Below are positions 13,141 through 56,246 of a stretch of DNA of 64,000 nucleotides, one piece after another (positions within the stretch are counted from its first letter, which is position 1; every line of letters starts with the position of its first letter). The notes beneath the pieces are model-generated. The model saw only the letters and a program-made list of their open reading frames with translations. It was not told the DNA's origin and did not search any database. The stretch is taken from contig JANJGN010000035.1 of NCBI GenBank assembly GCA_026770705.1, positions 7,626,001 to 7,690,000 of the forward strand, written 5' to 3'. Origin of the DNA: Isurus oxyrinchus. Its lineage: Eukaryota. A program made the position numbers and the translations under genes.

Positions 13141-13296
13141 TAAGTCATGTGTCAGTGATATTTTCATAGGCCTGCCTGTCGGTATTTATTGCATTGATGC
13201 ACACAATAACAAATGGTTCAAAAAATGTTCTGATTTTATCGAGTATAATTTACCAAACATAATTAAATTGTTTGTATGAAATTTATTAACAGTGCT

Positions 13297-13384
13297 TCAT
13301 TCTGTATGAATAATCAAAGTATCCGCTATATGTGGTGGCTTAAGGTAGTTCTGCCCTTTTGACGAAAATTGATTGTTCTCCAAA
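13297..13384 (-). pseudogene. NLR terminal LRR exon
   Basis: Acceptor ctttttcag, then (I)LENNQFSSKGQNYLKPPHIADTLIIHTE*. Phase 2 matches the previous exon. AATAAA at 13282-13287 on the minus strand. Confidence 0.8.
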
Positions 13385-16300
13385 CTGAAAAAGATGGGAG
13401 CATACGGAATGCATGTCCACTCTATCATGCATTCTGAATAATGATGCTGCTATATTCCAACAATTACTATAACATTCATTGTTTACTCTGTTTTCGATGA
13501 TAAGACGCAGGCCGCATTAACATGGCCAGTGTTTTTTTTTGCCTATCAAGCATTGTTGTTAAGAAAATGGTGGCGCCTCAGTTTCCTGAACCACTGAATG
13601 TAAGCTGTCGGAAGATCAATAAGTTACTAATGAGAAACTTGTGAAGTATTCATGAGATCAAGAAAGAAAGAGTATCTGTTCCAAAGGAGGCTGCTCCTAA
13701 AAAAAGAGATGAGGACTTGCATGTCATGCTCATATGTCCGCATCATTCTGCTTCTTGTTAAGATGTTTCACGTTTTGATGATGTTCTCAAAGGTGACTTG
13801 CGGAGCTGAAAATGTCCATTCTAGTTATGTGAAACACTGACGCTAATGTGAGCCAGAGGAGCCGGAGGCTACCTTTAAGGAGGCCGATGGGGTGTGAACG
13901 ATTTGTCATATTTAGTTTAAAACAACTTGTGTGTGGTTAAAGCTGACGTCATTAAGTAATTTTGAATTATTTAAACATAATAACTTGAGTTTTTTAGATA
14001 CTGAATGCTTTTCTGAAATCAGGAGTTGAATTACTCAATGCTGACGCCCGAACAACAAGCCACTTTTTGGAGACCCATCCTGACAAATAGCACAGACCAG
14101 AGCAACTGGCCAAACTGATCAGCCAGTCTTGCTCCAGTCGGGCCTTCCAGCTTTCCTCACCTATATCCATCAGCCGGAACCTTACATTTCCTTTATATCC
14201 ATCATAACTTCCCCCTAAATGCGTGAAATGCTTTAATTGATATTTGGGATTTTGCTTATTAGGAAAACTAGCATTTATTGAACACGCATGATAAGGCGGT
14301 ACAGACAAAGCTGCACAAACACCATGCCCATGTGTGGAATGGCCACTCTAATTGTCGTTAGGAAGGGCTTTCCATATTATTGACCTAGTGACAGTGAAGG
14401 AACTGCAAAAACATTCCAAGTCACAATTATGTCAGTCTGGAAGTAGATATGGAAGGCAGTGGTCTTCATAAGCATCTACTGCCCTTGTCCTACTATGTGG
14501 TTTAGCTCACGGGTTTGGATGATACTGGCGAAGAGCATATTCACATAGCAATACATATTATTGCGTAAAATAAACATTCTGATGAAGCTTTTCCGCTTGA
14601 ACTCATAAGGTCATGTTCCCATGAATACAACATCTAATGGGAATCACGATTTAATTGCATGGGAATAGCTTCATGACTGTTTAGCGAAATGACACCTTTT
14701 GGTGGACGTGTTGATATAGAAAAACTCCCAAGCCTAGTTATGTGCCAAGCTTTATTTAAAACCAAATGAGGAGTTCGATATTTACTGGTAAGTGCATTAT
14801 CCAATCCTGTGATGAAAACACAGAATAGGACAATGCAGCAAGTGCTTGTGAACTTCACCGCCTTCAATATAATTGTGACTTGCGTTGCAGTTCCCTCACT
14901 GACACTAGGTCAAATTCATGGAACTCCCTTCCTAAGAACAAACACCGTAGCCCTGTACCACATGGACCACAGTGTTTCAGCAGGTCTCTCAGCACAGCCT
15001 TCTCAAGCACAGTACGGCATGTTCATTAAACGCTGGTTTCCACTGCTAAATGGTCAAGGAATTGATGCTGGTCAAACTTTGTTTATTTCAAATAGGTGGA
15101 ATGCGTTGACATACTCTTTATGTTTGTGAAAGGCAGGACCCAGTGTGCAAACCCATGTCATATCTACCAAGCCTAAGTGAGCCACATTGTGAGTGTGACT
15201 GATAATATTAAATTCCCGGCAGGGCAATTGTTACCACAATCAGTGTTGTCCAATCACTGAAACATGCCTGAATTTCGACACAATGTTACGAATTTTGCAA
15301 TTAGCTCTGAATAGAGTCAGTGGTTTAAATGTTCCAAAAAATCGAATGGTGTGAGCTGCTTGATGCAATGCAACAGTCATTGGGATTTATGGTGCACATA
15401 CCAGGCATTACAGCTGTACTGACATGCCACGTGACTCACATGTGTGATAGATCGAACGTCTTTCTGATTGGACAGTAGCATCCAGTTAGTGGTTAATAGT
15501 ACTGGTATACGAAATGTAGCGTGAAACGTCTATCTTCAACTGCTGATTAGTTTTAAAGGATAATTTAACCTTCCAGGGTAACTTAAAATAAACTGGGCAC
15601 GTTTCAGAAGCAAAAATGCTGACGTTAGGACCGTCCATATGTTTCCACGATTGTTAATTGCTAAATCAAAGTCACCCAGGCATACACAACGGTTACCCAC
15701 AAAACGACTCTATTGTCACTTTCTACAAAACGTGAAGGTTGCAAAGAAGCAAGCTATTCTTAATGATGAATCAAAATTTGTATCTATTGCCACTTCTGCT
15801 TAACCTAACGCTATAATCTTGATTAAAAAGAAGTTACTCAACAGCTGGTTGGATTTTTGTAAGCGTAACGATCCGCATGGTGCTGTCAGCCTATTGTTCC
15901 TTGATGACTATTTTGGATAGCGTAGAGAGAAGGACTTTCTAGGGCCATCTGACGTTTCTCTGATCATTTTGCTTTCGCGTTATTGACACAGCAGGATGTT
16001 TAGTGCCGCATACGCTAGGTCAATTATGGTTCAAGCACATTTCTCCAAATTTCAAAACTCATTTTGTGGAGACCATGTAATGATGGCTTGTTTACTTTTG
16101 TGAAGGCAATCGTTCATCAAGTTGTTTCTACGCACTTTTCTTAAGCTTCAGCGAACACGAAGGAGACAGGAGCTATGATATTTTCTTGTTTTTTAAACAA
16201 TCCTCATTAAAAAAAAAAACACAAACTGTTGCAATGTTTTTCACTTTGTGTTACCTCGGTTTTTGGAAATATAATGAATAGCCTAGCAACAATCTCATCA

Positions 16301-16434
16301 TGCTACCATCCCTGTAAGTTATTTCACCACGGAATTTTGAATTCTCATATCAAAAATCTGAGATGGAAATCGTGCAGAAATATATTCCATGTTCGAAGCA
16401 GCATGAAATTAAGAAGCACATAATCCAAATTCAC

Positions 16435-16625
16435 ATAATTTCTTTCAGATACACGTTCTTACGGCTGAGTTCCTGAAATGCAGGAATAGAGTTGTCAGTC
16501 AGCAAGTTAGCCTCATCGCCCTCCGACTTGCCATACTCAGGTCCAGATGCATCAATGAGCGATTTAACATGAGAGCAGAGGTCAAGTTCTCCAAGCAAGC
16601 ATCTGTGAGATTGTTAGATTGTAAC
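16435..16625 (-). pseudogene. NLR penultimate LRR exon (1-nt frameshift)
   Basis: cacaacag, then LQSNNLTDACLENLTSALMLNRSLMHLDLS/..GDEANLLTDNSIPAFQELSRKNVYLKEI, then gtgaat. Length is 191 nt, one short of a multiple of three. Confidence 0.85.
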
Positions 16626-16901
16626 CTGTTGTGAAGGAAAAACTATTTTGTCATAATAGTAACGGCGAGCACAAATCACATTAGATATTATGAACAAACA
16701 ATATTTTATAATTTGAACATTCGCAGGAAAAGCTTGCTCATGCACAATCCAATTTAGTTAGCATCATAATTATTGCCATACAAGATAAATCAAAACCAGT
16801 ATTTCTTAATAATTATTGCCACCATATGTATTGTTGTAACAATTCACTATCTTCTATTCTGCATATTTGTGCTTCCCGATATTTTAAAGCCAATTACTCA
16901 C

Positions 16902-16988
16902 ACCAATCTCTGTATTGCACAATCCGTTCTCTTCAGAGCAGCAGAGATCTGTTCCATTCCCGAATCTCCAATTCCATTTTCATTCAGC
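16902..16988 (-). pseudogene. NLR LRR exon (87 nt)
   Basis: gattag, then LNENGIGDSGMEQISAALKRTDCAIQRL, then gtgagt. Ribonuclease-inhibitor-type LRR, phase 2-2. Confidence 0.9.
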
Positions 16989-17609
16989 CTAATCATACAA
17001 AAACAGAATGAATAATTGCTATGGAATTATGCATCAGTTTGCAAAAGTTCGCAAATAAGCAATATGTTTAACTGGAGGCACGCCGGTCATTGAGATGTGA
17101 ATAGAATACTTTCCATCCAAATGAAATAGCTAAGCGGGCATGGGGCGGAAGTATTCAGCAATGCTATAATGTGTTTTAATGTATTTTTCAGACGGGCAAA
17201 TTATCCAACATTCAGTTTATCAATCCTTGTTTCAGGCATCTCACCGTACCTTAATACAGAGCCAATGCTGCTTGTGGGTGGGGGGAGTGGTGTAGCTCAA
17301 AGACAAACGTAATTGGGCTGTGGTGTATGGTATTTTATTTAAAGGTTAAAGTGAGCTGGAAATTGGCCTTCCCCGTGGTTTTCTGCTTGGACAGAGATAT
17401 CTGAGTGTTTCTGTGCATAGTTGCTTAAATTTGGCAGAATAATTTGAGAGTGTATTTGCAAAAGCATATTGTGTCTTATGTTTCATAAATGGACGAACTT
17501 TGCCTTCATGGATGAACGTTATGCTGAACATATTTGAAGTGTTAGTTGTGACGCAACTAAAATATTGTGCCAACTTATATATCCATTCTTTAAGACGTTT
17601 ATTTATTAT

Positions 17610-18500
17610 TCTTTAAACTTTCATGGGTGGTGTGCAGCACGGAAAAGGCCAAAATATCTTGCCCATGCAGAATTACCGCTGAATTGAATTCACTGAGCTG
17701 CCTTCATGGCTACTGCAGCAGATTTAGTACAGGCACTCTCACAATACTGTTCGGAAGGATGTTCCAGAATTTTGATCCTGCAATAGTGAGGGAACCAAGA
17801 TATAGTTTCAAGTTCGAATGTCTTGTGGCGAGTTTCGCATTCTGCTGAGGAAGTATACTTTTGCGTCTACTGCCATTAGCCAATTAGTTGGCACAGGTTG
17901 TAGTTGTGGAAGGGGCTATGAAATGAGTCTTGGTGAATTGATGCATTACATTGTATTGATAATAACTGCCAATGTGCATCGATGGTGGAGTGGATGCTTG
18001 TCAAAGTAGGAAAGTGGAGTGCTGACCCAGCGGACTCTTTTGAAGAGGATGATGTCGACGTTATTCATCTTTGCTGTGTTGCCGAATGCATGCAGGAAAT
18101 TCGTGGGTGTTTCAACACGCTGTTGACTTCAGCATCCTAAATGGCCAACCGCCTTTGAGGAGTCCTGAGGTGTGTTACTCACCTGGAAATTCGCATGTAT
18201 TTACTTGGTCTTGTAAGCCTAGTATATACAAACATAGGCCCTTTCTTTTTCTGGTTAATTACAACCCCAGAATGGTGACAGAGGGAGCATTCATCTATGA
18301 CACTTCCATTGCATGTCACTTTTATGAGCGCGTTTGGTAGAGTGCAGAGCATAATTTCCAGATTGGTCACATGTATGGGGATTTGAGAAATATAATGTTG
18401 AATAATCTGCGCATGCTTTCCTTGGAACCTCGCAATTTGAGTGGAGGTCTGATACAGTTGGGACATGGGTTTATTGAGTTGGGTCAAAATATAATATCCT
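17610..18500 (-). mobile_element. Decayed LINE 3' fragment in NLR intron
   Basis: Reverse complement parallels the 3' region of 25545-28560. Confidence 0.65.
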
Positions 18501-19274
18501 CGTTAGCTGGTATTAAATAAGATCAAAGAGGCACATATTGAAATTTTTGACCTAAATATGCAGTGAAAATGCGAGGAGGAAAAGTTTTACAGAACGATTG
18601 GTTAATATGTTAGTGCCTGCGAGATTCACAGCAGTACACACGATCACTGAAATCAACAATTCAGTTCATAAATATTTGAGGAAAATAAACCTAATTGGAA
18701 ATAACACATCACGGAGAAAAGGGGCTGATTGAATTGCTATATTAGCTTCTGCACGTACACATTGGAAGAAATGGCATCCATATGCACTGTACTCAAGTTA
18801 TGACTATGATTTAAGAGGATAAATTCTGAGACTTCGTGTAACAGAAGACAGAATATTGGTAAGAGGAATGGAATAAATGCTCTAAGTGCAGAAATTTTCA
18901 GTTATTTCAAAGCAAAGTGGAGTGTCACGTGCTGACAACTGCACGTTTGGTGGAGTTCCCTCTGATTCTGGAGAGCGAACTGTTCTCCCAGTAGAAACTA
19001 GCATAATCTGATTAGATCAAAATGGAGTACATCACACTGCTAAAATTTGATTCCAATGTATTATATTTGCGCACAGGAAGCAGAAGTGATGTTTCCAACC
19101 ACCATTCCGATATATTTAAAATGCGTGAAGGTGTCTTCTGATGCTATTCAAATGTCTACTGCGGTGCATTTTTCACCTGTTGTTTTAGCCGGAATTGCTA
19201 TAGCAGGAAATATCCCAATATGTAATACAACAGTTCTTGATAAAAACGGTCATTTAACACTTTTGATGAATTAC

Positions 19275-20984
19275 CTGTGTATGCTTACTTTAGGCAGTAT
19301 GAGTTCCAGCTGATAATTGCCCTCCAGTTGTACATTAGAAGTACTGAGGACAAGATCTTCAATCAGCTCAACAACCATTAATGAGCTTGCGAGAACCGCA
19401 CAATCAGATGGTTTTAGGTTAATTTTTGTGAATTTCATTATCTTCAGCGGTGATAATGAGTCCGTCATCAGATTTCTGTTCCCAATTCATGAAAGTAATG
19501 CAATATCTGTAAGATCGTGTTTTGGTTTCGCTTATCCTCCAAGTTATGAACAAGTCGTTTGTAGCTTTCTTTGAGCCAATCCGACAAATACGAGGGTGTT
19601 TCTGGATGCAATTCACACAATTCGCAATCAAGGTTTGCAACTGAATCCCCTGATGAAAGGCCAAAAAAAAATCGTGAAATCATCTCGAATCTATTGTCAG
19701 GGCACGAGGACCATGCCTGAAATATACGCACCAAATCATTTCCTGGTGTAATTCGAATTGTCTTAAATGCTGCGACAAAGTCCTGCATCAGCAAATAGGT
19801 AAATGTGCAGACAACACTGGACTGATCTTTGTCTTGAATTTCCATCATAACTGTTGCCGTAATTCTGGAAAGATGGATGTTGTACTCATTGACTTGATGA
19901 GCCTTAAACACAACAACATTGTTGCGAATTCCCTCGTAGGCCAATTCACCTAGTTTTAGCAACTCCTTGTTTGAATTCACTGCGGCACAACCACTTCTAT
20001 TTAAAACGCCTGTGAAGTAAGCTGAGATGAACCGTGTGCTCTGCGTGAATAGAAATTTCCAATTTCCTTTTGACAAGTATATTTCCAATACTGAACAAAA
20101 GACTGAGAAGTACAAAGGGTTATAACACATGCCACACAATATTTCATTATGCTCAATTTATTTGATTACATCTGTAGCAGGTTGTCCATCGCCAAGATAC
20201 TGCCGAAAATATTGTCTTGTTGTCTCGGGGGTGAAACCCAGCATTTCGCCGAATACATTTATTTGTGCCTTTTCTAAAGATTTTAGTTTCCAAGGACGGC
20301 TTGTTGCAAGCAAAGAGCAACCTTTCAACAACTGACCTTTTATAATGCAGCGCACAATATCAGTTGTTACGTAATAGCACTCAAGATCGATACATTGAGT
20401 TTGGAGATCCTTCTCACTTTGTGTATCGGCAAAATCGATGATTGGCTCAATTTGATTTAAATCGTCAATTATAAACAATATTTTTGCTGGTTCATTCCAC
20501 AGTTGTTCCAATCGGTTATCAAAATTGGGGAAGTAATCAAGGATCAGATCATTTAAACTTGTTCTCCCCACTACTGAATTCAAATGTCGAACTATAAAAG
20601 GAAGAACAAATTGAAATTGTTGCCATATTTTCCTCTCGGACCAGTCATGAATTGTTTTCTGAATCATGGTGCTTTTTCCAATTCGGATGGCCCCAATGAT
20701 CACCATGGTGTAAGACGTTCTTGTGCCAGCCGAACTGTTTTCCATTAAATGGGAGAGCTGAACTACTTTTGGAGCTTTCCCCAAGATAATTGGCTCTAAT
20801 TCTCTACCTAGGACATTGGGTTATTTTCCCACAATTCCCAGCGAACGCAAATGAGAAACAATCCTTACTTCATCGTACATTTCATCCAAACAAAGTCTTC
20901 TGTAGTTTTTGCTGCTTATTATATTATGCACTGTCACCATCATATTCTTCTTGCGAAGGTTTTCTTTGTGCTGTATCTCTATTT
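19275..20984 (-). pseudogene. NACHT exon of an NLRC3/NLRP-like gene; two in-frame stops and one frameshift
   Basis: Acceptor tttactcaag, then EIEIQHKENLRK. Walker A-like GAIRIGKSTMIQKTIHDW; Walker B-like KILFIIDDLNQI; LLKGCSLLATSRP; EMLGF; CYNP; FTYLLMQDFVAA; RFEMISRFFFGL; LKPSDCAVL. TAA at 20821-20823 and 20158-20160; frameshift near 19480; donor AG|gtaatt at 19275. Confidence 0.93.
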
Positions 20985-21589
20985 CTTGAGTAAATATAAG
21001 TAACAACGTAATTATTGTAGGCATGGTAATTCACAAGACAAACATTCGAAGAGCACTTCCGTAGAAAGAGGAAGTACACTTGTAGCGATATATGTTTAAG
21101 GAAAACAAACTGTTGGGAAAAAAAAACGAGATCTGAACATTGGGATGTCACATTATGGCAGAAGATGCAAACGGCAATCATGCCACCTTACACTTTGGGC
21201 GAACAAAATGCAGATTTCAACATTTAGATTTCTCGTCACAATTAATTGAAAAATACTTTTGAGTGTGCATGCCCATAGCACAGCCATATATAATGCTTCT
21301 CACCAAAATAAGAGGCCAGCATGTTATTGCAGTAGTGAAATGCAACGAGATCGAAATATTTTTAGAGCAGCGGGTATTTTACATTCAGAATGGCGCCTGA
21401 GTACAGTGATAAAAATGTGTCAACAGATTCTCTGAAATAATTAATTATATCAGCGGCTATGAAATAAAGGACTATCACGTGCCCGAGCCCTCTAAGTTAT
21501 GGGATGTTTCATTATTTATTACAGCTGGAAAGGCAGTATATGAATTATCACACAGAAGCAAAATTTATGGTTTGCCTGAAGATTTCAAT

Positions 21590-25540: not shown

Positions 25541-25544
25541 TAAT

Positions 25545-32508: not shown

Positions 32509-32695
32509 CATCTACTTCTACTAGCCCGTAAAGTAATATGTGCGATTTATTTTTCAGCTTTCGTTTTGAGTTCTGCAATTCAAGGAATATTCTCCAGAGT
32601 GCTCGTTGTCCCTGAGCCCCGTTTTCACGCAGGATATTAAAAATGAATTGAGAAGCCAGGTTCATTTTTCCACCTTCGGCCAGGCTTCTGATTTT
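32509..32695 (-). pseudogene. CARD-like (death-fold) domain, second-half exon, copy A
   Basis: gttttttag, then KIRSLAEGGKMNLASQFIFNILRENGAQGQRALWRIFLELQNSKRKLKK*. Resembles the chondrichthyan NLR N-terminal motif KVxELxxxG..SxxLLxLVMEKGxxARRVMWExF. Donor position uncertain. Confidence 0.75.
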
Positions 32696-35006: not shown

Positions 35007-35175
35007 CTTATACTCTATTTCAGTCAACGGGGAAGAATCGGAAAGCATCTGAAAACATCGTTCAGAAATTCTTCAAAACAATTTTCAATATCCTGTCGGT
35101 AGTACTAAATATTAGCATGTAGCTTTATATCAGTGCAGCTCGCCAACTTGAGAAGCATTTTGATATGTGCGTTTT
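35007..35175 (-). pseudogene. CARD-like domain, first-half exon, copy A
   Basis: ccttgacag, then NAHIKMLLKLASCTDIKLHANI*YYRQDIENCFEEFLNDVFRCF/DSSPLTEIEYK, then gtgtgt. Phase 0 donor fits the 32695 acceptor. One stop and one frameshift. Confidence 0.7.
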
Positions 35176-41330: not shown

Positions 41331-41492
41331 GTCTGCCTTTACTGATTGTTCATTTTTATGTTTCTGGTTTGTTTTGGAGTTCTGCAGTTCAAGAGTTTTT
41401 CGTTCTCCCCGAGTCCTATTTTCAAAGAAGGTTTTAAGAATGATTCGGCAAGCCTCCTTCCTTTCGTCAGGATCAGCTATGTTTCTGACTTT
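41331..41492 (-). pseudogene. CARD-like second-half exon, copy B
   Basis: ctactgtcag, then KVRNIADPDERKEACRIILKTFFENRTRGERKTLELQNSK. Shares LELQNSK and flanking intron similarity with 32509-32695, with a small internal deletion. Confidence 0.7.
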
Positions 41493-42600
41493 CTGACAGT
41501 AGAAGATATTATTTTCGCAATTAGAAAAACAGTGCACAGTGTCAAACAAAATCATTTGTTGTCTTTTTCTCTCTCTGTCACTGCTTGTCTGCCCCACACT
41601 CAACTCTCTCTCTCTAGATATCTCTCTGATTAATTTAGGGTGGAAGTAACAGTAAACCCTCAATCAGAGAGGGAGAAGCCTTACTCAAGGAGTTATGTTA
41701 TAAGGAGCCGCTAAATGGAAGTAAGAGTCATGGAAAACCATTTTAGGCTTAGTCTTATAATTTAGGGGCCAGGCAGCTGAATAGCCAAACCTAGGAGACA
41801 TATTATGACATGACCTTATATGTCAACAGCCAGCAGCATTTGCTGTTAAGGCCAGTAGCGTTATGGAAAGCAAACGACTGTGATTCGGAAACTAAAATTG
41901 TACAGGCCAGAATTCATAAAATTGAGGGTGAAATCAAAGGTCGATTGCAGCACAAAACAAATAAATATAGAAGCCCTTGTTCCTGTTGCAACTCGCCCCA
42001 TCTTAATTGATAATGACCACAATAAACGTGCAATTATTATCATGTTTCTCCGTTATTCATCGAAATATTAAAAGCAACTTACCATGCAACCATCCATAAT
42101 TCTCAAAATACATTTTCCTTTCACAATCTGCTTTATTTCAACATGATTACGACACGCATCGCTTCATTCAAATTATTTAATCTTTCATTCATTCAGCCCT
42201 GTAATTTTGAATGATTTGCTTCAACGTAAAATGCCCTATGCAGTTGTGAATTTAAATAGAATTAGCCTACTGAAGCACGCTTAATATTTAGTACATATAA
42301 CATTTCCGATACATGTTCAGAACATTAAAATCTGTTGCAGATTTTTTTTCGCTTGTAATACATTCTTCCTGTCTGAACATTCTCTACTCTTTTCAAGATG
42401 TAAATGTTGATGCTATTGATCGTAACGCTCTCAATCAAGCAATTAGTTTCATTTTATTGTATGTTATTCTTCTCATTCAAATTAGTTATTTGTGACGCGT
42501 ATGTTTGCATTACCGGATATCTTTCCAGAATTCATGTAAATCCTAATGCAAGCACACTCTCCGCCATAACCTTACATCATACATAGCAATTATTTCTTAC

Positions 42601-42847
42601 CAAAANNNNNNNNNNNNNNNNNNNNNNNNNNNNNNNNNNNNNNNNNNNNNNNNNNNNNNNNNNNNNNNNNNNNNNNNNNNNNNNNNNNNNNNNNNNNNNN
42701 NNNNNNNNNNNNNNNNNNNNNNNNNNNNNNNNNNNNNNNNNNNNNNNNNNNNNNCCTCAAGCCAATCCTTCAGATAAAAACTTGCTGAATTATTCATTTT
42801 TTTGCAGGTTATTGTTGTCCTTATGGTCCCTGAGTATGAGTCAATTG
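42601..42847 (-). pseudogene. Probable CARD-like first-half exon, copy B, interrupted by gap
   Basis: tgaatgcag (phase 1), then IDSYSG...SASFYLKDWLE into Ns, similar to the xxFYRDRLE motif. Donor TTG|gtaaga immediately after the gap. Confidence 0.4.
42606..42754. other. Assembly gap (N run)
   Basis: Run of N. Confidence 1.
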
Positions 42848-43899
42848 CTGCATTCACAGAACAATATTTATGTCTGCTTGCAGGCATTTAGCAAAGACGA
42901 TACACTGCAGCATTATGTTGATTTGAATTTACACAATGCAAGCCATTTGCCAGAGGATCTTAAGGGTTATCCAACTGTGAACTCCAGAATGTTTGGAATG
43001 TTAAATTTTAGAACCGTATTTCCATTAGTTTTCAAAAGCAGTTGATGAAACTCTTTCCTTTTGGACTTGAGCATAGATTGGCATCTAATTGACAGAAATT
43101 TTACCTATTGCTTATCTATCCAGCTCTCATTCTCGTTTTGTGTTATTGCAATTCAAATAGCTTCAGAGAGCGACATGAGACGCAGTCCTGAATCTCAAAC
43201 TTTTAATTGGGATTTTAGCGAAATTAGTGCTAAATTTACGTAGTTAATAGTCATTTAATGAATGCTAACACACTAATAGACGACTGTAAAAGTATGTTAG
43301 TCCAGCAGGTAGGCAAAACAGCTAGGAGAGGACACTGAAATCATACAGCTGGATTAAAATGTATTGCGAATGCAGGAGGACTGAAGTCAAAATAGAAACT
43401 GCCAAAAAACTTACGGTCTGTCCACCACTATGAGGAGTGGAACAGAGTTATAAGTTGCAATGAGTTGGATCAGTAATGAGTAAGGAATGTCATTGTTTTG
43501 TGAGTGGTTGGAAAAATGCGTGTGTGGCAGCTGGAGAAAGAAAACATGTCAGGGAGTGGCTGCAGGGCTTGGGAGTTTCAATGACAAAGATGTAAAGGAA
43601 AATAGCGGGAAGAGCGTGACAATGGTTATTAAAAGACTCTAACAATTAGCCCAGATTACATGTTAATAGCAGAATGGACATCTGTGCTGCCCAAAATCAG
43701 AATGGTAGAATGCAATAAGAGCATGTGCTGCAGCATACGAGGTATCATTAAAAAGTCAGTTTGTTTAAAAACCAATCTTGGAATCCAGAGTGAAGGTCAA
43801 TACATGAGGAATGTATGCAGTATGTGTCGATGGTTTGCATCTGGGTTAGGATGTGTGAGCCGGGTCTGATTATTCGAGGGGGCACATTGGGATCAGGAT

Positions 43900-44330: not shown

Positions 44331-45139
44331 TCTGACAAATGTTGTTACACCCTATTTGAATAAGGGTGTCCGAGTTGCTGCTGCCGACCAGCCGGACAAA
44401 TATCTATGGATGTTTAGAAAATTATGGCAAGCTCTATCAATCTTATGGCATCCATATTCTTATTTGAATGGGATTGAAGCTGCCATTATCGGGCGAGGTA
44501 AGCAGTCCAGGCTTCGGCCTGAGTTCAAGAAATTTAGGCGATTTTGAACATCACCAGCTTTCTCATTGTTCTCAAGCATTGTTAGAAAATATTCATTCAG
44601 CACCAAAGCACTTGCCATCGGCTCTGAGTGTTACACACCTATATTATCACTAATCAATCAGACGCAGACCAATACTACCATTTTACGACATGCATGCTGA
44701 TTGATGATGATTGGTTCACTTTTTTGCTAACTGCCATTCCTATGTTCCTCTTTGTATTTTGTTTCAACTTATTACATTTGATCTGGGCCTCGCTTGGTGA
44801 ATCCTTCTTACAGCATAAAACGTTCTCTTCCTTTGTATCCTCATATTCTCTGTCCCAAACATCATTCAAGAATCCCTGAAAATATTAGAGGTACTTTGTC
44901 CACTTGGCCCAGGTGGGCTTTCCCCACTATTTGGGCTCGAAAATTCACCTACATAGATGGAACAAGAACAACCTTGAAAATGGTGCTGCTGTCCCTCCTC
45001 AGAATTATTTAGCTTCTGAATAAATGCTCCACTGTGTTTGAAATATTGTGTTTCTATTTCTCTTATTACTTGGAGGCGTGCTCAATTAATGCATTAGCGT
45101 GATGATTCTCAATTAACTTCGAAACTCTAAGTATACCGG

Positions 45140-47900
45140 AAAGCAGAGGTGCATTTTTAATATCACTGGATTTTATTTCCAGTCACCGATGCCAATTGGC
45201 TGGGGATTAGGTTTTAAAATAAGACAAGGGCAGCTTGTAAAATATAAATTCCAATACATCTGCAATAAAATGATCTCAGTAACCCTGACCCTCGATCCAT
45301 TTTAATTAGAGCTCATCTTCTTCATTAATGCATTTTAAGGAAGGTTACAAGCCGTCCTCACGTGATCCAGTGGACATATGACTTCAGGCACAGAGAAAAG
45401 TTGTTGATTCTTAACTGCTCTTTCAAACACGGTAGCAAACCAAACAGTTTCATCAAACTGCTGCCGAAACACAAACGCACTGAAAAGGGGTGGATCACGT
45501 GACTTCGCCCCAGGGTCCGGAAGCGGCGATAGCAAGACCAACGACCTATAACTAATTCGCCCCCATTAGTAACATCTGGGGGCTTGTGCCAAAGTTGTAG
45601 GAGTGATCACTGCACAGTTATTCTGTAGAAGAAAGTCTGCCCTTAAATTGGAGGATAACGTTCATGTGTGGTGCGGCAGTGCAATGAGGGATGGATTTAG
45701 AAAAATATTATGCAGCTTCTAATAGAGATCGATGAGATGCACTGAACCATCAGCTGCAGGAGAATTGCAGTCAACTGCCTCCACATGTCCTGACAGATCC
45801 CCAAATCTACCATTACCACCGGAGTTCTGGATCAGCGCAGTCTCACCAAATTTGGAAGGACGTCTTTTCTGGTGTAGCACCAGACATGCTTATTTTTGCG
45901 GTATAATACTGATGAAGCAACAACTCGGAACATCAGCGCGCCGAGTATTGGAGGCAGCATTAGATAGACAGAGCTAAATGATCACACAAGCAACGGATCA
46001 GATCTAAATTGTCTAGTTCATCCAGATAGAGTAGTGCCTGGTGGTGAACAATTGAACCAGTAACAGGAGGAAGATTCTCCATTATTATTCTCAACGGCAA
46101 TGATGGGGGGTGGGGGGGCGTGCGGGGGTGGTGGGTGGTGGGTGGGGGCAAACACATCTGTGCAAATAACAGAGTTGAAGCATTTGAAAGCAAATAATCA
46201 GAGGGTTGAGCTGATGATCCATCGTGGCAGCATCCTTTGTTAGGCAACATGACAGCCGTTAGACATCAGCCAATTCGATTCACTCAAGTATAACAAATAA
46301 GTGGTTGGAATTGTTGCATACTGCCTAAGGCTAAGGGGCTTAAGAAAATTTGGCTGAAAACATGCGCTCATGGATTAGCCATGGCAAAAGGCAAATTTTC
46401 CAAGTGCAGCAAAAGAAAAACTGACATCTACCGAGCAACATTTCAAACTTTGAAGGTAGATCCTGTTAACAAAAAAAAACAGGTTAAATCAAAAGCGGTC
46501 AAATACCGTTACATTTGCCTGCTCTTGTTCATCAGCAAGGTGATGAGAGGTATTGTGCAACACGCTATGAAACAGTACTTAATCAGCAAAAACCTGCTGA
46601 TTGATAATCATGTTACGACCTTCAGACCACTCAGCTGCCCACCGCATTACACATCAGGCCCAAACATGAATATAACAGCTCAAAGAAAAAGATGTTGGAG
46701 AGTCACGAAAATTGACATCGAGGGCACTTTTGACTGTAAGTGACATCAAAGAGCCCTGGAAGAAACCAAAGTCAATTTGAATCAGAGGCAAATGCTTTAT
46801 TTATTTTTTTTTGGTGATAAATCATGCACAATGCAAGGTGATTATTATTTCTGAATATCAAAAATTTCGGACAAGTAACATGGTTAGAGGATTTCTTCAG
46901 AATAGTATCTGAAGACCTAACGCCCTAAAATGTTTAATCAATGATCTTCCCTCTATCATAAGCTTACTTGGCGGTGCAGAGTGTTGGGGAGAAGGGCAGC
47001 GAGGGTGGAGTCGTTTCAGAAGATGATTGTGCGAATATTAAGAACCATTCCCAAGTCCTCAGACGCAGAGGCAGTACATGACAACAAGGAGTAAAGCTGA
47101 ATATTATTTTTAGGTTTGTCCTGAGTCCCAAGAAAATTTTATGCCACGCAATTGCAAGGCAAGGATCTTTTCCAACTTTTCAGAATCTATCCAATTTATC
47201 TTGAAGCTGAGTGGCATTATCATTGCTGAATCCCTCTCTCTCAGCTTCCAAGGGGTCACCATTGGTCAGTATTTCACCTGCATAATGCCATGATTACTGC
47301 GTCTATAACAGCAGGAAAGAATCTATTAGCTTTGCAGCGAATAAGTCAACTATTGACACCTCAAAAGCCAGCCACCAACTACAAGACTGACGTCGAAATT
47401 GTGATGGAACACTCTCCAGGTGTCTGAATTAGTGCATTTCGATCAACACTCAAGAAGCACGACAACATCAAGGACAATGCAGCCGGCTTGATTAGCAGCC
47501 TAAACACCACATCGAACTTCAGGCTCTCCAAAGCCGGTGCATATTTGCAGCCCTGCCTCAACCCAACAGGACTCCTTCGACATCACGTTTGAAAACCCAA
47601 ACTTTTGCAAGCCAGAAGGAAAAGTTAGAAGATCCATGAGAACACCGCCAGATGTGTTTCCTTTTCTATTTGCTTTCCCCGCCAAGCCAGACACATTTCT
47701 CACTTAGAGCTATGTTTGTGCTCCTTCATTATCTTTGTGAAAACATATGGTTCGCCTTTCCTATGCGTGTTCCGATGTCACACAGTCTGCAGCAGTTCAG
47801 CACGTTGCTAAGCACCATTGTCTCAAAGTGAATGACAGATGGACACTAATATGTGGTCTGGCGGCAATGCTCAGATCCCATTATGGAGTCAATAATTAGC
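45140..47900 (+). mobile_element. Decayed CR1/L2-group LINE, near full length
   Basis: AACATCTGGGGGCTTGTGCCAAAGTTG at the endonuclease start; YRYICLLLFISKVMRGIV at the RT start; TTAATCAATGATCTTCCC; 3' end GCTCAGATCCCATTATGG. Confidence 0.8.
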
Positions 47901-50119
47901 GAAAAGGAAATGCCTTTTTCTTCCACGTTTCTTCATCGCTCTTAAGGCGCCTTCCTCTCCCTTTTATATCCTTAATAGTTTTCTTAATTTGTACTGTCTT
48001 ACTTTTCTCTCTCATGCGCATGAATTCCATGCTGAGTGTTTCATTTATGGTGCCGTTACAGCATTTAGCTACTCCGTTTACCCGTTCAGTTCAATCTTTT
48101 GTCGTAACAATGTTATTTTTATTCTTAATCAACACGTAAAGTGCCTGGGGGCAAAACTATATTTTCATGTTTGGGATGTGAGCTTCTTGCTGACCATTAC
48201 TCCATTTCGTTTGACCTGACAGTCTGTCCCATCCCATGTGCTGATAGATCAAACATTGCCCTTGCAGCCTGCCTGTTATGGTTCCAGAAGTTTCTTCTAG
48301 CTTTGAGTTTCACTTGCACAATGCAGTGCCTTATCAACTTGACAATATTTCCCAAAATCTTGAAAAGATGTCATCACTTCGTACTATTCCCTATTTTTGA
48401 AATATAATTCCGACTTATCCTGCACAATGTACATTACTAATAGCTTAAACAATATTCTGAATTGTGTTTGCCCACCTTAATTCAGGAGCATAAGTGCCTA
48501 AACAAAACATTCAGCTCCTCTAACATAGTCTAATGCTGAAATAACTCCTCGCAGATAAGCTGCTTAAATCCAAACAACCACAGCAGTGATACCACACTTC
48601 TACCAAAAAAGGATTTAAGCACTGGAAAGAAATCTGGTGAGAATGCTTGGCTGCGTCCATAACCTACCGTCCATTACAATGAATGCCAAACTTATATGGA
48701 GGCCCTAGGCGTTAACGTGCTGGTCAGAGGAACCGTTGTGCAGACAGCATGAAGTTTTACCAAGTTAATCTGATATCAGATTACATGCCTTGTGGACTCT
48801 AGAACATGACTGCTTAAGCTGTTTTAACTAAATAAATATGGTGCGCCCCCTTCGAAAGCAACCAAGTGAAATAGGCAGATGGAAAGCAAAGGTTTGGGAA
48901 ATCCACAGCCAGCAACCCGCCCAAAACTCAATCGTTTGCAGAATTCATACATATTTGTACCAGGGATTTCCAGAATCAAATGGGCCTTAACAATTATGCC
49001 ACATGTTAAGAATCCTATCAACTAACCCATATCATGAAGATGGTAATTTCCCCTCGAAATATGAACAATAAACTGTTCTTGTGTCTGGGGTCTGGAGCTG
49101 AATGGATTCAGGAAGGGGATGAATCAGATTTTGCCGTGCTTCAGTAAACATCCCCACCAACCCTCATCCAGATGCTCTTCAATTACACTAGTCATTATCA
49201 TTTATATTAATATGACCGTTATCATCACCATCATTGTCGTTATTTTATGTGCTGATCTTCACAACCAAATATAATTGACATCACAACATTGACTTGGTCA
49301 GGTTAATGGAAAACAGATCACTTTTTTGATTTGATGATTATTCAGGTCTTCGCTATTTGTCCCCATGTGCATAACCTCAGGCTCTCTGGCTCTGAAATCC
49401 ACATTTTCCCCATCCTTTTAATCGATCAATTTGATCTGCCATGTCCCCTTGTAAATGGCTTAATATGGAATCAATCTTTAAGAAAGCTTACGTACTTCAC
49501 TCTCTATTGTCTCCCTGCGTTATTAAAAGACAGTTTCTGGCATACCGCAGGAGCCGACAGAAAACCAAGAGCCACGTATTTCTTTGAAACATTGTGAGTA
49601 CACCAAAACAGATTGCTCCTTCGAAAGAAACTTAACATCCAACCGAAAGTGTTGTTGCCAGAACAAAAGCATAGTTGTGCACTAAGCAGAACATCATGGA
49701 GTTTAAGCAAACTTTGTTCATTTGCACAAAACACCTGCTCATGACTTTTAGGATTTCACATGTTTTGCTAACTAGTCGCTTATTAAGCTTTGAAACCTTC
49801 AAAGATGCATGCGCATTATATAGATTGTCTCTATGTCTTTCCTTTATAAAACATGTTCCCAAACAATGTCAGTTGGGCACACCGTTTTCTATCATCCTCC
49901 AATCTGAAAGAAAATTTACCTTGTTTTCTGGCATTACCTCCTCTGTCTTAAATAAATTTGTTAAAGGTCTCCCTACACATTGAGACTTAATTGAGTTAAT
50001 CAAATCTTCACGTGGTGTTTTGTGTAATTAGTTATGCAAATCTACATAGTGCACCAAATTAATTGTCGACTGAATCTTGCCAGTTCTGTGGTCAGCAAGG
50101 TCAGTTTGAAAAGCCGAAC

Positions 50120-53100
50120 AAGAGGATAAATAATACCTTCACCCGCCGACAGCGGGTTCTGCGCCCAGATGTCAAAGGCATTGTGACTTCCGGGTCAGCT
50201 GTCAGTGCAGGCTCCGTAATACAGTAATTGCAGTGAATTAGCGTCAGCGCGGATACTGTTCTGTCTTCCCGCCAAATAAGTGTTGGGGCCCTATCTCTGA
50301 GGCTGGGGCAATGGCATGGATCACGATAAAGGCCAACATTTTAAGTGTTCCCCTTTTAATGGACAGTGGCAGGTGATTCATCAGATGAGCAGTCCAGTGT
50401 ATTTCCCGTTTAACCACGCAAGATTGTTTAAACTTTAACTAATCACTGCCGTCTATGTCAAATGTGAAAGGTGACAAAAGTTCCAAAGTTCAGCAAGTTT
50501 CCAATTTTTGGCACTGGGGAGATGTGCATTTATTTTACGTAACCATACACATTTTTATGCCACCAATGCGAGCTAGGAGGTGTTCAAAAAGGGACTAATG
50601 TGAAAACAGATTCAGTAAGGCCGTGCTTAGTGAAATCCTGCATGCAGTACCTGAGAGCGGTCGACAGCTCATGCTGACCACTAACAAGATGAGGGAGCGC
50701 AGGCATAATCGTGCTGCGTGGAGGCAGATGACTAACAAGTTAAAATTGGTTCTCATACTGGACAATTTCTCCTTTAACTCCTCTCACTTCCGCCAAATAA
50801 AAGGCGCGGCTATGGGTACCCGCATGCGCCCCAGCTATGCCTGTCAAATTATGGGATGGGTGGAACATTCCCTGTTCCAATACTACTCCGGCCCACTCCC
50901 AGAGCTCATTCTCCGGTATATCGATGATTAATTTGGTGCTGCTTCATGCTTTCGTTGGGCTTGGAAACATTTTTTAATTTTGCTTCCAATCTCCACCCCT
51001 CTATCATTTTCACATGGTCCATCACTGACACTCCCTTTCCTTCCTTGACCTCACTGTGCCAATTTCTGGTGATAGACTGTCCACCAATATCCATTAGAAG
51101 CCTACCGACTCTCAGAGCTACCTTCACTACAGCTCCTCACACTGCACTTCCTGTAAGGACTCCATTTCCATTTTTTCAAGTACATCGCCTCCATCGCATC
51201 TGTTCTGATGATGCTACCTTCAAAAAGAGTTCCTCTGACATGTACTCCTTCTTCGTTAACCAAGGATTTGCACCCACAGTCGTTGACAGGTCACTCAACT
51301 GAGTCCTGCCACTCTCCCCTGCTTCCACCCTCACGCCTTCTCCTCCCTCCCAGAAACATGATAAGGTCCCCATTATCCTCAATTATCCGCCCTAAATCCT
51401 CTGCATTCAAAGGATCATCCTCCTCAATTTCTGCCAACTCCAGCATGGTGCCACCACCAAGCACATCTTCCTTTCACCCCCATTGGAAGCATTCCATAGG
51501 GATCATTCCATCCAGGACACAGTGGTCCACTCCTCCATCACCCGGTACTCCTCAACGCCAACCTGTGGCACCTCCCCATGCCGACGCAAAAGATGCAACA
51601 CCTGACCCTTCACTTAATCTCTCCTCACCATGCAAGTGCCCAAACACTCAATTCAAGTGAAGCAGCATTTCAATTGCATTTCCCACAAATGATTCTACAG
51701 CATTTGTTGCTCCCAATGCGGTCTCCTCTACATTGTAAGACCAAACCTAAACTGCGCGATCGCTTTGCAGAACACCCGTGCTCTGTCCACAAGAAAGACC
51801 CAAACCTCCCAGTTGCTTGACATTTTTAGACTGCACGCTGCTCCCTTGGCCACATTTCTATCCTTGGCTTGCTGCATTGGTCCAGTGAAGCCCAACGGTA
51901 ACTGAAGGAACAGCACCTCATCTTCCGACTAGGTACGTTACAGCCCTCCAGACTGAATATTGAATTCAAGAACTATAGATCTTAATCTCCCTCCTCCATC
52001 CCCACCCGCTTTTCGTTTCTGCCCCCTTCCTTTTGTTTTTCCCCATCATTTATAAAGACATTTCTCTCCCAATCATTTCCATTATTTTTAAATCTTGTAT
52101 TCCCTGCCATTCTTTCCACCCCACCCCAACTTGAGCTGTACCTCGAACGGTCAGCCATCCTCTCTTAATTAGCACATTTGTTTAGGTAATTTCACGAGCT
52201 TCAAAACCTCTTTGTTCCTTTGTCTGAAACATCTTTTGATTATCGGTTTCTATCACTGCTTGTTTGTCCCTACAACCACACCACCCCCTCCCACTCCTCT
52301 CCACCCACCACCCCCAACTAAAACCGGCTTACATTTCACCACTGTCCTAATATTCACTCAGTTCTGTTGAAGGATCATGAGGACTTGAAACGTCAACTTA
52401 TTTCTTCTCTGCCGATTGTGCCAGACCTGCTGAGTTTTTCCAGGTAATTCTGTTTTTGTTTTGGATTTCCAGCATCCGCAGTTTTTTTGTTTTTATCTAA
52501 GGTAAAAGGGGTTATTGTGGCGAAGAATAAATTGCCCCAGTGCCTCATTAAGGCCTTATGCAGGCATTCGCAGATAGCTAGACCGCTGCCTCTATACCCC
52601 TGAGGAGAAGTCAGTTTGTTGGTGCCTCAGCTGGCAGTTTCAGGATTGATCAAGATTCTTGGGACTTGGGGCTGTTCTGTCCCCATGCTGAGAAAACACA
52701 GCATCTTGTGCCGCCCAAACCACACACCTACCAACCCCCGATCCTTCTTTCAACTCACCCTTGCTTCCAGTTATTCCCAATCCTTGTTTCCTCCTCATTC
52801 AAGGCTCTGTCTCAAATGACACATAACTCTCCATCTGTCTCAGACATTTTTCACCGCTCAGACCTGGGTAATGGATGGGAACTTAAGCCAACAAAGGAGC
52901 CCTATGAATCAGAGGAGAGTTCTCCTCAAGAAAAATATCCAAACGGATCGTCTGTCCACTCAGATGAGCAGTGCCTTCATTCAATAGTTTTTAAATGCAA
53001 AGTGAGACCCTCGTCTCAGCTGCTGTTTTTATGCTGTGCAAACAAGACTGCCCTTAGAATGGGGGTTCCCCAGATATCCTCAATATCGCCGGATGGCGTA

Positions 53101-53332
53101 TTATTGCATTTTGGTCCTATTGTTCCATTTAATTAGGTACTTAATTAGGTTAAATGCCATTTATGTTGGCATTTAAATAACGCGTCCGAGTTCTGGACTT
53201 ATTGACCTGCCCGCCTGCCGTATTATCAGAAAAAGGCCGAATTACTGTTCAACGGAGCCAGAAGTCAACACGACCCATGGAACACTCCATAAATGGGAAG
53301 AACTTTCGATCTTGGAGCTTAAAATATAGTCC
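50120..53332. mobile_element. Possible non-autonomous DNA transposon (MITE-like), split by a Penelope insertion
   Basis: Imperfect subterminal inverted similarity: GGCTCCGTAATACAGTAATT near 50211 versus reverse complement GGCTCCGTTGAACAGTAATT near 53240-53259. Confidence 0.4.
50740..52500 (+). mobile_element. 5'-truncated Penelope-like retroelement (RT + GIY-YIG)
   Basis: LVLILDNFSFNSSHFRQIKGAAMGTRMRPSYAC...LRYIDD (RT); CCSQCGLLYI...LRDRFAEH (GIY-YIG); 3' tail with hammerhead-like core at 52360-52398. Confidence 0.95.
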
Positions 53333-53590
53333 CTGATGTGATTTTGGCAAGTCTGTAATGTTTCTCCTTAAATATCTGGAAACTCCCGATTTTTTATGAA
53401 CATTTCTCCTCTTATTATTGTTCTGGGACCCTTACCCTTTTTTATGTCAAGCTGACTGTCCGGGTTTACTTGGAATCCATTCGGGCAAATTATCACTAAT
53501 ATCTCGCTAAGAACATGCATCCTGCCTCTGACTGCAAACTTCCAGTTTACGTGCCAAAAAGGATCGTTTTCATATCGTGTTTATACTTAC

Positions 53591-53958
53591 AGCCATCCCA
53601 TAGCTCCATTTGTTCCTGCCAGTATTGCTTTGCACTTTCAACCTGTTTATTTTATTTGATTTCATTTTATTTTAATTTCCGTTGTTTTATTTTGAAAAAT
53701 TCACCTGAATTCGTATTTCCGGTCCTTTCAGGTAGTTGTTCGGAATCCCAATTCCGAGTATACTTCCGTTTTGCATATTGTTACACTGCAACGGCAATCA
53801 ATGTTACCAAAACAATTGCACCGTTGATAGTTCCTTCAAGCAGCGGTAGACATTCCTCCTTCATTTTTGTACTATCTTCAACCACTGTAAGCTTAACAAA
53901 AAAAGTCTCTGATCTGCTAATGTTCAATAATTCAATTGATAGTTAAAGTATTCTGTAC
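53591..53958 (-). pseudogene. Transmembrane + juxtamembrane exon of a type I membrane protein (disrupted)
   Basis: tcatttag, then ...ELLNISRSETFFVKLTVVEDSTKMKEECLPLLEGTINGAIVLVTLIAVAV*QYAKRKYTRNWDSEQLPERTGNTNSG...QVESAKQYWQEQMELWDG, then gtaagt. Hydrophobic run followed by KRK. Phase-1 donors at 53705 and 53591. Confidence 0.55.
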
Positions 53959-55971
53959 CTAAATGAATTATTTCAAACTCCAACTTGATATCTTAAAAAC
54001 ATGTTTTCTTTTTGGAAAGCATTTGAACTTGAACTTTGATGTCCGCTTTTGCACTTAGTAATTTTACTTGTCAGTTAATAATAAACTTTTGTATTTATTC
54101 ACTAACTTATATAACTCATTGATGACTTGTGGACTACATGTTTATCGATTAGAAAAGTGGAACAGTACTTATATTTATTAGCATTGATCATGCTTTAATG
54201 CTTAAATAATTAAGCATGCTACACAGAACTGGTTTGCCGTTAGCAACTTAAGATATTTGTTTTGTTTAGTTAAAGCCTTTGAGCCCCATCAAGGTGTTTT
54301 GACGTCACGGCATTAAATTACATACATTTCTAAAAATAATTATTAAAATCAAAATACAAATGTTGAGTGCTCGATTTAATTTTTGTCCTGTGATTTTTGT
54401 GAACAAGGAACTGTTTCAAGTGGGTGCACCCAGGGTTCAATAATTGGTCTCTTGAAATCCCCGTACATATCATTGAATTGAAATTAATGCATGGTTAATC
54501 TGGATGGAGTATATTAGAAGTTAACATGGTATGCATATTAAGACACTCAGAGTGTGCAAGAAAGCTGCCGATCACAGAATATTATCACTGTTCTGTTCAG
54601 GGGAGAAATAAACTGCCAAATTAATTTATTCCAAACAGTTTGGTTCTAACTCATTTGGCGAAAATACACAAGGCAATGAAAATTACAACAACTGAGAAGA
54701 TACCAAGAAGGAAAACTAATCAGCAAACCTTGGAATATATGCCCACAGCTCAATTATTTAACACAGACATCTGGATTAGATGATCACCATAACTTACAGA
54801 AACACAGTTTTATTTTTCGAAGGTTAGAACTAAGATCTAGTTGGCGTGTCATAAGTGAGTAAATTAATATTTCGCTTCAAGTGATGTGCTACATACAATT
54901 CCTGTTATTACATTGTAGTATACAGAAAATATTTTGATATATGCTACAAAAACTAGAGAACTTTAGCTATGAAGGAAATATTAGATAGGGTGGTAATGTT
55001 TTTTTTTCCCTCTTGGAAGTCTGTGTGAATAGTTAGTTCAGAGAAGATATTGTAGACTGGCTTAGATGCACTGGAGAGGAAATAAACTATTGTCCTTAGC
55101 ATTGAAGCCAGCAGCTCCGGGCCCAGGGTGCAGGGGAGGGGGGCGGTGGGGTTACACTGGACTCAACAATGTAGATGATGTAAGGGTTAATATTAAAAGG
55201 TTCTCGAAATATGTGCCGTTACCCAATCATCATTAGGTTTCTGGAAGTCGTATTTCGTGCGTTATTTGGTAATGAGTACCAGAAACTAAATCAATGTTGT
55301 TGACATAACCTTCTCACAATTACCGACTGCTTCTAATGACCATAGCAGCGTAAGAAATATGTATTGAAAATAGAAATGCTGTCGACATTTGCTTGCATCT
55401 CATGTTATGCACACGTGCTGTGCAATCAGATCAGCACTTCTGTATTCTTTGCTCTTGGACTGCCTGAGCTACAAGAAAGAGACGCAAAAGTTAGAAATTT
55501 TTATGAATAGTCTATTTGTAAAAGTCATGCAACTTATCATACCATTGAAGCATTTGTTAAAATAATAATAAACATCAGAGTAAATGTTATTACACTTGTA
55601 AATGCACCGTGTACGAATCTTATAAGCTTTGCAGATTAGGTAATGATGTGGAATCGAAACAAGCTTGCAATTCTGTCGCAGTGTGTTTGGGGAATTAATT
55701 CATTCAATTAACATGAACATATTACTCGATTGGGATAAAGATTTGGAAAAACGTGATACTTAAGTCTACAAAATAAAGTTACAATTCAATATTATCCTTT
55801 TTGTGGTTGGTGGCGGGCAGAATGGCGGCGGAGGGCAATTATAACAACAAAAGTCTCGAAACATGTTCTGAAGAAAGGTTATTTAGAAAAATATGTGCAC
55901 ACAAATACGGAGCAATAAAAATTAAAACACATGAATCAATGGTTTGAGTTATATCAGAAATACAGTAACTC

Positions 55972-56246
55972 CTGTGTGTGTAAGCTGCCGTTTAAATAAT
56001 TAGATGCGTTTAACTGAAGAGAACCACTATCTATTTCTTTCACGAGGTTAAACGAAACTATTACGAGGTTATTTGTAACTCGTGTAACAGGCGTGAACTT
56101 GACTGCTGTATTTTCCTGAGTGGTCCTATAGCCATCATTTTCTCCACTGAGGTCTGTAAGAACTACAATTAATAATCCCAGCAAAATCCATCCAAGCAAG
56201 CAGGCATATCTTTGTCGACAAGGCATGGATGCAGCAACAGCAATCA
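55972..56246 (-). pseudogene. Signal-peptide / ectodomain exon
   Basis: Strong acceptor gttttctcttttgcag. ATG at 56226 gives MPCRQRYACLLGWILLGLLIVVLTDLSG. Later NLVKEIDSGSLQLNASNYLNGS resembles the Ig I-set DSGxYxxxAxN motif, with NxS sequons. Donor unclear. Confidence 0.5.

Follow-up and report, generated by a model that had tools for sequence, protein, structure and literature searches.

Vertebrate NLRs are normally cytosolic and carry neither a signal peptide (SP) nor a transmembrane (TM) helix. A 64,000-nucleotide stretch of the 4.98-Gb genome of the shark Isurus oxyrinchus (contig JANJGN010000035.1, here C35, positions 7626001-7690000; hereafter the window) raises the question of whether this description holds for the whole family. 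On its minus strand lie, in this order, exons for an SP-like segment, a TM helix, CARD-like half-domains, a NACHT domain and leucine-rich repeats (LRRs), followed by a last exon. An earlier note on this DNA had read the series as the relic of a single gene of 43 kb that encoded a membrane-anchored NLR and that may survive intact elsewhere. That reading is supported by the retention of the linkage between the SP/TM and NLR exons in both of the two paralogous units of the same genome, by an open paralog, and by annotated sister proteins in other species. The SP, TM, CARD, NACHT and LRR exons thus very probably constitute one gene. The window copy is a pseudogene belonging to a shark-and-ray NLR subfamily, and does not itself make such a membrane protein.

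Searches with the NACHT exon of the open paralog (paralog A) and with its best match recovered homologs in the form of RefSeq gene models. Two of these, XP_078087540.1 from Mustelus asterias and XP_072354258.1 from Scyliorhinus torazame, combine an SP-like start, a short ectodomain, a TM segment, a KxKY or KRKY motif, a YxxL motif, a CARD-like domain, NACHT and LRRs. In a tree of 137 NACHT regions, which excluded same-gene isoforms, a fragmentary locus of the genome and proteins that covered fewer than 370 of the 430 residues of the query, the window grouped with paralogs A and B (support 0.987), and this group was sister (0.99) to XP_078087540.1, XP_072354258.1 and XP_072354253.1. All three sister proteins unite TM, CARD-like, NACHT and LRR segments in one chain, and two of the three have an SP-like start. 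The shark-and-ray clade that holds the window comprises 43 tips (support 1.0). The earlier note had raised the prospect that homologs of the SP and TM exons belong to a separate gene with its own 3′ end; in the gene models of the relatives, these homologs instead continue into CARD-NACHT sequence.

TM-like segments, defined as hydrophobic 19-mers with a basic flank before NACHT (mean hydropathy 1.8-2.9; a prediction only), occur in 19 of 35 clade proteins, compared with 3 of 80 outside the clade. When only N-termini of at least 100 aa are considered, the counts are 19 of 24 and 3 of 58; because the tips are related, these figures are descriptive only. In one of the 19, the sole segment is N-terminal. 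Eighteen of the 19 are named, and they represent 10 species, four of them sharks (Mustelus, Scyliorhinus, Stegostoma and Heterodontus) and six of them rays (Pristis, two Mobula, Hypanus, Hemitrygon and Narcine). The three TM-like cases outside the clade are a CARD helix (identified by reading), an N-terminal stretch and a bichir model with an immunoglobulin (Ig) and TM arrangement. Ectodomains are about 40-60 aa long in the closest relatives of the window and 200-470 aa long in ray proteins, and a tyrosine motif lies 8-15 residues past the helix, with the form YxxL in those closest relatives and GYE in several rays. In three proteins, from Narcine (P0078), Hemitrygon (P0003) and Heterodontus (P0060), the sequence ahead of NACHT contains three or four TM segments as tandem repeats. 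A single Polypterus senegalus model, XP_039601942.1, with V-set and butyrophilin-type C2-set Ig domains, TM, CARD-like and NACHT, falls outside the shark-and-ray clade and represents either an independent Ig-TM-NLR or a gene-model fusion.

Within the Isurus genome, the SP and TM exons have two other copies each, on the same strand as, and upstream of, the two NACHT matches closest to that of the window (73% and 57% identity). Across tens of kb the three units align collinearly with about 65-82% identity, and the common unit spans 60-80 kb, introns included. Because the introns are as conserved as the rest, conservation-based exon finding among the three copies failed. An intact paralog had been anticipated, and paralog A (G000:C35:8855949-8817527), which lies 1.17 Mb away and is collinear with the window, fits that expectation: all eight exons (SP, TM, two CARD halves, NACHT, two LRR and last) are open when judged exon by exon, with AG acceptors, six GT donors and one GC donor, and their phases chain as 1-1, 1-1, 1-0, 0-1, 1-2, 2-2, 2-2 and 2-stop. 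The NACHT branch of paralog A carries 36 synonymous and 75 non-synonymous changes (non-synonymous to synonymous ratio, pN/pS, of 0.56; p=0.004 vs neutral), and its NACHT frame stays free of stops in 1.1% of neutral simulations (n=5000); the NACHT region of paralog A is under purifying selection. The branch of the window, with 21 synonymous and 80 non-synonymous changes, has a neutral pN/pS of 1.03, and has therefore drifted over about its whole length.

A second and more distant TM-CARD-NACHT locus is present at C35:6794775-6799885, where an open TM exon directly precedes CARD and NACHT exons. The first TM profile found no TM exon upstream of three other clade loci, at one of which another query revealed a TM segment of a different type. 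GC-AG introns are likely at the SP exon of paralogs A and B and at the TM exon of the 6.79-Mb locus (L057:4988 region). In loci L051-L057 (G000:C35:6733039-6799885, plus strand) and in XP_072354261.1 (P0007), CARD-like repeats occur before the TM exon and one CARD-like domain after it; if these are type I proteins, several of the CARD-like domains would be lumenal or extracellular.

The predicted structure of XP_072354258.1 (AlphaFold, mean pLDDT 76.5) comprises a low-confidence N-terminus, with an ectodomain of pLDDT <50 and a lone helix at residues 83-107, then a confident six-helix bundle at 134-243 and the NLR body. This body resembles NLRP3 (8ej4; Foldseek E=8e-28; VIA Z 31.4, root-mean-square deviation (rmsd) 11.5, 624 residues aligned) and NOD2 (5irn; VIA Z 28.0, rmsd 16.6, 582 aligned), and the LRR fold, of which only about 5 strands are modelled, resembles that of NLRP1 (Z 21.7, rmsd 3.0, 185 aligned). 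An ESM Atlas search with the N-terminal 250 aa of homolog P0042 gave no usable match. In paralog A, Pfam identifies NACHT (95.6 bits, cut-off 26.7) and NOD2_WH above the cut-off, with HD2 below it (E=5e-6), and sequence motifs corresponding to Walker A, a DD-type Walker B and TSRP can be recognized. LRR_6 is above the cut-off in P0042.

The features of the window are collected in Table 1; boundaries and splice dinucleotides were checked on the minus strand. The SP, TM, NACHT, LRR and terminal exons that the earlier note had listed are present, as are the CARD-like exons beginning at 41492, 35175 and 32695, with an AG acceptor at nine of the nine exon boundaries checked. Its contention that disabling lesions affect both the SP/TM and the NLR parts is likewise correct: stops, frameshifts and altered donors are spread over the two, amounting to at least four stops, three frameshifts and two altered donors.

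Table 1. Features of the window (positions in the window; all lengths in nucleotides)
Feature	Position	Strand	Remarks
Signal-peptide-like exon	56103..56246	-	144 nt, phase 1-1; ATG at 56226
TM exon	53705..53884	-	180 nt, phase 1-1; helix then KRKY; in-frame TAA at 53783
Exon at 42847 of the earlier note	42755..42920	-	not significant; 3′ end runs into N
CARD-like second-half exon, orphan	41331..41492	-	degenerate; 162 nt vs 163 in paralog A
13.9-kb segment	23049..36919	not assigned	diverged internal duplicate with second CARD set; paralog A lacks it at this place
CARD-like first-half exon	35007..35175	-	169 nt, frame-breaking; TAG at 35107
CARD-like second-half exon	32509..32695	-	open, phase 0-1
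FISNA-like/NACHT/WH/HD2/first-LRR exon	19275..20984	-	stops at 20823 and 20160; frameshift near 19481
LRR exon	16902..16988	-	87 nt, open
LRR exon	16435..16625	-	191 nt vs 192 in paralog A (frameshift)
Terminal exon with stop codon	13297..13384	-	
Two AATAAA signals	13287-13282 and 13190-13185	-	only the second also in paralog A

The SP-like exon encodes a putatively cleaved segment with a basic N-region and a 17-residue hydrophobic core, as judged by eye and by hydropathy. Its donor is TC in the window as opposed to GC in paralogs A and B. With the Mustelus N-terminus as query it was the top match (E=0.012 in paralog A, 0.78 in the window), a weaker match than that of the TM exon. In a search with the S. 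torazame N-terminus, the TM exon ranked first (E=0.001 in the window, 1.2e-6 in paralog A), and a profile built from the TM segments of seven other proteins returned the TM exon of the window as the sole positive-scoring match in 84 kb read in six frames (E=0.0011) and matched that of paralog A at E=5e-11. A protein search with the 58-aa TM exon alone scored none of 12 candidates. The in-frame stop of the window exon falls within the helix. The KRK stop-transfer sequence proposed for this exon is present, and of its two proposed donors, the one at 53705 (GT at 53704) holds good and is common to all three copies; the other, at 53591, is rejected as it lies past an in-frame stop.

An Ig-like domain had also been placed between the SP and TM exons, and for this we find no trace. 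The longest stop-free stretches of the coding strand in this interval measure 76 aa in the window, 57 in paralog A and 77 in paralog B, which is too short; an Ig query gave no match there; and Pfam detected Ig families in none of 12 shark and ray homologs with a TM segment. One match in paralog A (32 aa, E=3e-4) lies on the opposite strand, past the TM exon. A small exon candidate in the SP-TM interval, at 55468, is preceded by a good acceptor in each of the three copies, but a stop follows after 12 codons and no clear donor is evident.

A profile built from 62 CARD-like domains matched the window at 41495, 35176 and 32698 (E=8e-4, 8e-5 and 1.5e-12). The further exon that had been read as CARD-like at 42847 has no match to this profile, and its DNA aligned with three CARD first-half exons no better than shuffled sequence (scores of 36, 42 and 31.5; shuffle means of 35, 35 and 34); it is at best the eroded remnant of a CARD first half. 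The two CARD-like domains of the earlier note are thus really one and a half: the orphan second half stands, followed by a first and a second half within the 13.9-kb segment. Among 15 proteins scanned, Pfam reported CARD in two, XP_072354261.1 (40.4 bits; cut-off 23.9) and P0010 (23.7 bits), and gave no CARD match in homologs P0004 and P0042; it found no pyrin domain (PYD) family in any of the 15. A phmmer search reached the CARD of caspase-1 only at E=0.47. A CARD-repeat protein folded poorly (pTM 0.28); with this model as query, Foldseek returned nothing at E<=0.001, and the best VIA match (Z 6.1) consisted of single helices.

The NACHT region of the window is 73% identical to that of paralog A but broken, and the glycine of its Walker A motif has become arginine. 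The LRR exons match the Mustelus protein. The terminal exon with its AATAAA signal, as previously described, is present, and a second AATAAA was found at 13190. At most about 20 codons upstream of the NACHT acceptor (21006-20985 in the window) there is an in-frame ATG, after which the pyrimidine tract is read through as hydrophobic sequence; this frame is open in the window and in paralogs A and B, and might be an internal start or chance.

The window is part of an NLR cluster, with 45 of the 106 NACHT matches in the genome on C35. Many NACHT matches on this contig contain stops, consistent with birth-and-death turnover. One broken NACHT copy (G000:C35:7599787-7600353, plus strand) lies 26 kb past the window on the other strand, and another (G000:C35:8684406-8684984, minus strand) lies within the unit of paralog B. 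The plus strand of the window contains, at 50600-52500, decayed frames of reverse-transcriptase-like and GIY-YIG-like type that resemble a Penelope-type retroelement and are also found in paralogs A and B.

What kind of protein would an intact member of this family be? Sequence-based prediction suggests that intact members are likely to possess a signal peptide, one TM helix and an outer part that is short or of low complexity. We consider it probable that they are anchored cytosolic sensors, in which a single-pass membrane protein would hold the whole CARD-NACHT-LRR portion on the cytosolic side. The exons would be spliced into one mRNA, as the RefSeq models and isoform patterns suggest, and the product would be inserted co-translationally into the membrane of the endoplasmic reticulum with the NLR inside, an orientation determined by the basic residues that directly follow the helix. 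According to the positive-inside rule, basic residues beside a helix fix its cytosolic side, and the NLR would face the cytosol whether or not the first hydrophobic segment is cleaved. Tyrosine motifs near a TM helix play a role in sorting, and the juxtamembrane motif might direct the protein to endosomes or lysosomes or recycle it from the surface. NLRP3 and NOD1/2 are brought to membranes by lipid binding or palmitoylation, steps for which the anchor may stand in. At the surface or the endolysosomal membrane, the LRR/NACHT portion could sense microbial products exposed to the cytosol or membrane damage, upon which NACHT would oligomerize on the membrane and the CARD-like domain would recruit caspase-1, ASC or RIPK2. 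Alternative splicing and alternative starts may give rise to TM-less forms from the same loci.

The ectodomain might alternatively be the sensing part, binding an extracellular or lumenal ligand and clustering the NLR tails, in a layout like that of TLRs with the output of an inflammasome or nodosome. Ectodomains do vary greatly among paralogs, four CARD-like repeats precede the TM segment in one S. torazame model, the bichir model has Ig domains, and the sea cucumber protein AjNLRC4 is described as having Ig outside and NACHT inside (PMC13133943). We nevertheless regard an outside-in receptor as unlikely, given that no Pfam family was found in any shark or ray ectodomain scanned, that the modelled ectodomain has pLDDT <50, that S. 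torazame isoforms starting inside the TM exon have almost no ectodomain, and that paralog A would expose about 30 residues. An anchor is favoured over a ligand-binding receptor because the closest relatives have tiny ectodomains or none.

Annotated isoforms bear both on whether the exons are joined and on which form prevails. At a Hypanus locus, a 58-residue TM exon, the size of that in the window, is skipped in two of seven isoforms, and a single residue is missing at the entry to the CARD region in two of seven; at a Mobula locus, the TM exon is skipped in one of seven. At one S. torazame locus, isoforms start at the SP, at a methionine inside the TM exon or at the CARD region, and one of five skips the TM exon or starts downstream. 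Variants of these kinds normally derive from aligned RNA in the RefSeq annotation pipeline, and the TM-skipping isoforms, like those with a one-residue difference where TM and CARD meet, therefore imply spliced transcripts. Soluble forms probably coexist with membrane forms. It is conceivable from the same isoforms that the TM-less NLR is the dominant or functional product of the one gene, with the anchored form minor or regulatory (a decoy, or secreted if only the TM exon is skipped), but this is quite improbable, as most isoforms at these loci keep the TM exon and the TM segment is kept across sharks and rays. A transcript start downstream of 53.5 kb, which the earlier note would have counted against its reading, has a parallel in some annotated isoforms, which begin past the TM exon or skip it. 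Sequence words from the exons were absent from the five RNA runs listed, and none of these contained the NACHT exon of paralog A. Contigs from four RNA runs of the same species, compared with the SP/TM stretch of paralog A and with the 6.79-Mb locus, yielded repeats only and no joints, and are uninformative either way.

A further account, likewise quite improbable, is that two adjacent genes, one for a cytosolic NLR and one for a small membrane protein, were co-duplicated segmentally and fused only by gene predictors. It can draw on the duplication of the whole unit, introns included, by which linkage in this genome alone proves nothing, on in-frame ATGs that all three copies have shortly ahead of the NACHT exon and near its beginning, and on an older S. 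torazame model without the TM exon, but is at odds with an identical join in models from 10 species that map to one clade, with the single-residue and exon-skipping isoforms at the TM-CARD junction, and with a phase 1-1 TM exon after which no terminal exon is seen before the CARD exons of paralog A.

Several observations weigh against reading the series as one gene with a membrane-anchored product. Evidence for the join comes from automated gene models, and no read or cDNA was seen across any junction. The tree tips are not independent, and the supports are FastTree local values on a midpoint-rooted tree. A TM segment is lacking in 16 of the 35 clade proteins, 11 of which have N-termini shorter than 100 aa, and a YxxL-type or GYE motif occurs in only 9 of the 19 TM-bearing proteins, some of whose tails are incompletely covered. 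An in-frame acceptor lies upstream of the SP exon and the N-terminus is longer in several models, so that the first hydrophobic segment may be uncleaved. Structure search did not confirm the CARD fold, the query being the poor model described above. In paralog A, the SP exon needs a GC donor, and the CARD exons are degenerate, the first half scoring only 3.1 bits; A may therefore be an anchor-NACHT-LRR protein with a weak CARD. Its pN/pS differs from that of the window with p=0.064 only, and paralog B is broken in SP, TM and NACHT. Finally, identity between the window and paralog A is 78.5% for the SP exon, 70.6% for the TM exon and 75.9% for a neighbouring intron; as the exons are no better conserved than introns, there is no sign of selection on the SP and TM exons here.

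Among known systems, the predicted NACHT-WH-HD2-LRR fold of the shark model resembles that of human NLRP3 and NOD2; these proteins, like NLRC4, lack both a signal peptide and a TM helix and associate with membranes peripherally. NLRX1 is another vertebrate NLR with an N-terminal targeting sequence, which is mitochondrial; it is single-copy, has no CARD, and does not share the secretory-pathway type I layout described here, although trout NLRX1 is predicted to have two potential TM segments (PMC9680067). The NACHT-LRR body is also that of the shark "NLRP-related" NLR expansion of Tan et al. (2021; PMC8455134) and of RefSeq "NLRP3/6/12-like" models, names that the homologs found here bear, and the expansion is probably the same one. 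That paper calls NLRs intracellular, in one of its two uses of "transmembrane" refers to 7-TM receptors, and states that cartilaginous fishes lack true NLRPs; compared with the proteins as described there, those found here have no PYD, and have an SP-TM front end and a CARD-like domain instead. Anthozoan TM-NLRs (Yuen et al., PMC3879445; van der Burg et al., PMC5094078) similarly have an N-terminal TM region and form one clade within a larger expansion, but have three to five TM segments resembling a gap-junction-type domain where the shark and ray proteins are single-pass with a CARD-like domain; they are described as anthozoan-specific and all other metazoan NLRs as cytosolic. The sea cucumber proteins AjNLRC4 and AjNLR-new also unite TM and NACHT in one membrane protein, with the NACHT of AjNLRC4 inside, but are invertebrate and are described as being of an Ig-TM-NACHT type, whereas the shark and ray proteins have no Ig (PMC13133943). 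ASC is reported to be present in a bamboo shark and absent in chimaera (10.64898/2026.07.03.736391). In the main texts of openly accessible papers, we found no report of TM-bearing NLRs in sharks or rays, nor of such a family in other vertebrates. The architecture is already implicit in RefSeq, under NLRP-like names, and has gone unremarked.

The evidence tips slightly in favour of a broader claim: that integral-membrane NLRs form a class, so far unreported, that extends across the shark-and-ray clade and is the first family of secretory-pathway TM NLRs in vertebrates, in which a cassette TM exon switches between membrane-bound and free CARD-NACHT-LRR and some members with long or CARD-repeat ectodomains signal outside-in to an inflammasome-type platform. 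The dead copy in the window is of value because it points to paralog A and the family. With such proteins, nature would have set up a test of whether an NLR is primed or activated by tethering to a membrane alone, which is currently debated for NLRP3, and they bear on how caspase-1 is triggered in cartilaginous fishes. A fundamental rule in the innate immunity of vertebrates separates receptors in membranes (TLRs, lectins) from NLRs in the cytosol, and the papers on TM-NLRs present these as novelties of anthozoans or invertebrates; if the reading is true, a TM-anchored NLR clade common to sharks and rays would break that rule in jawed vertebrates.

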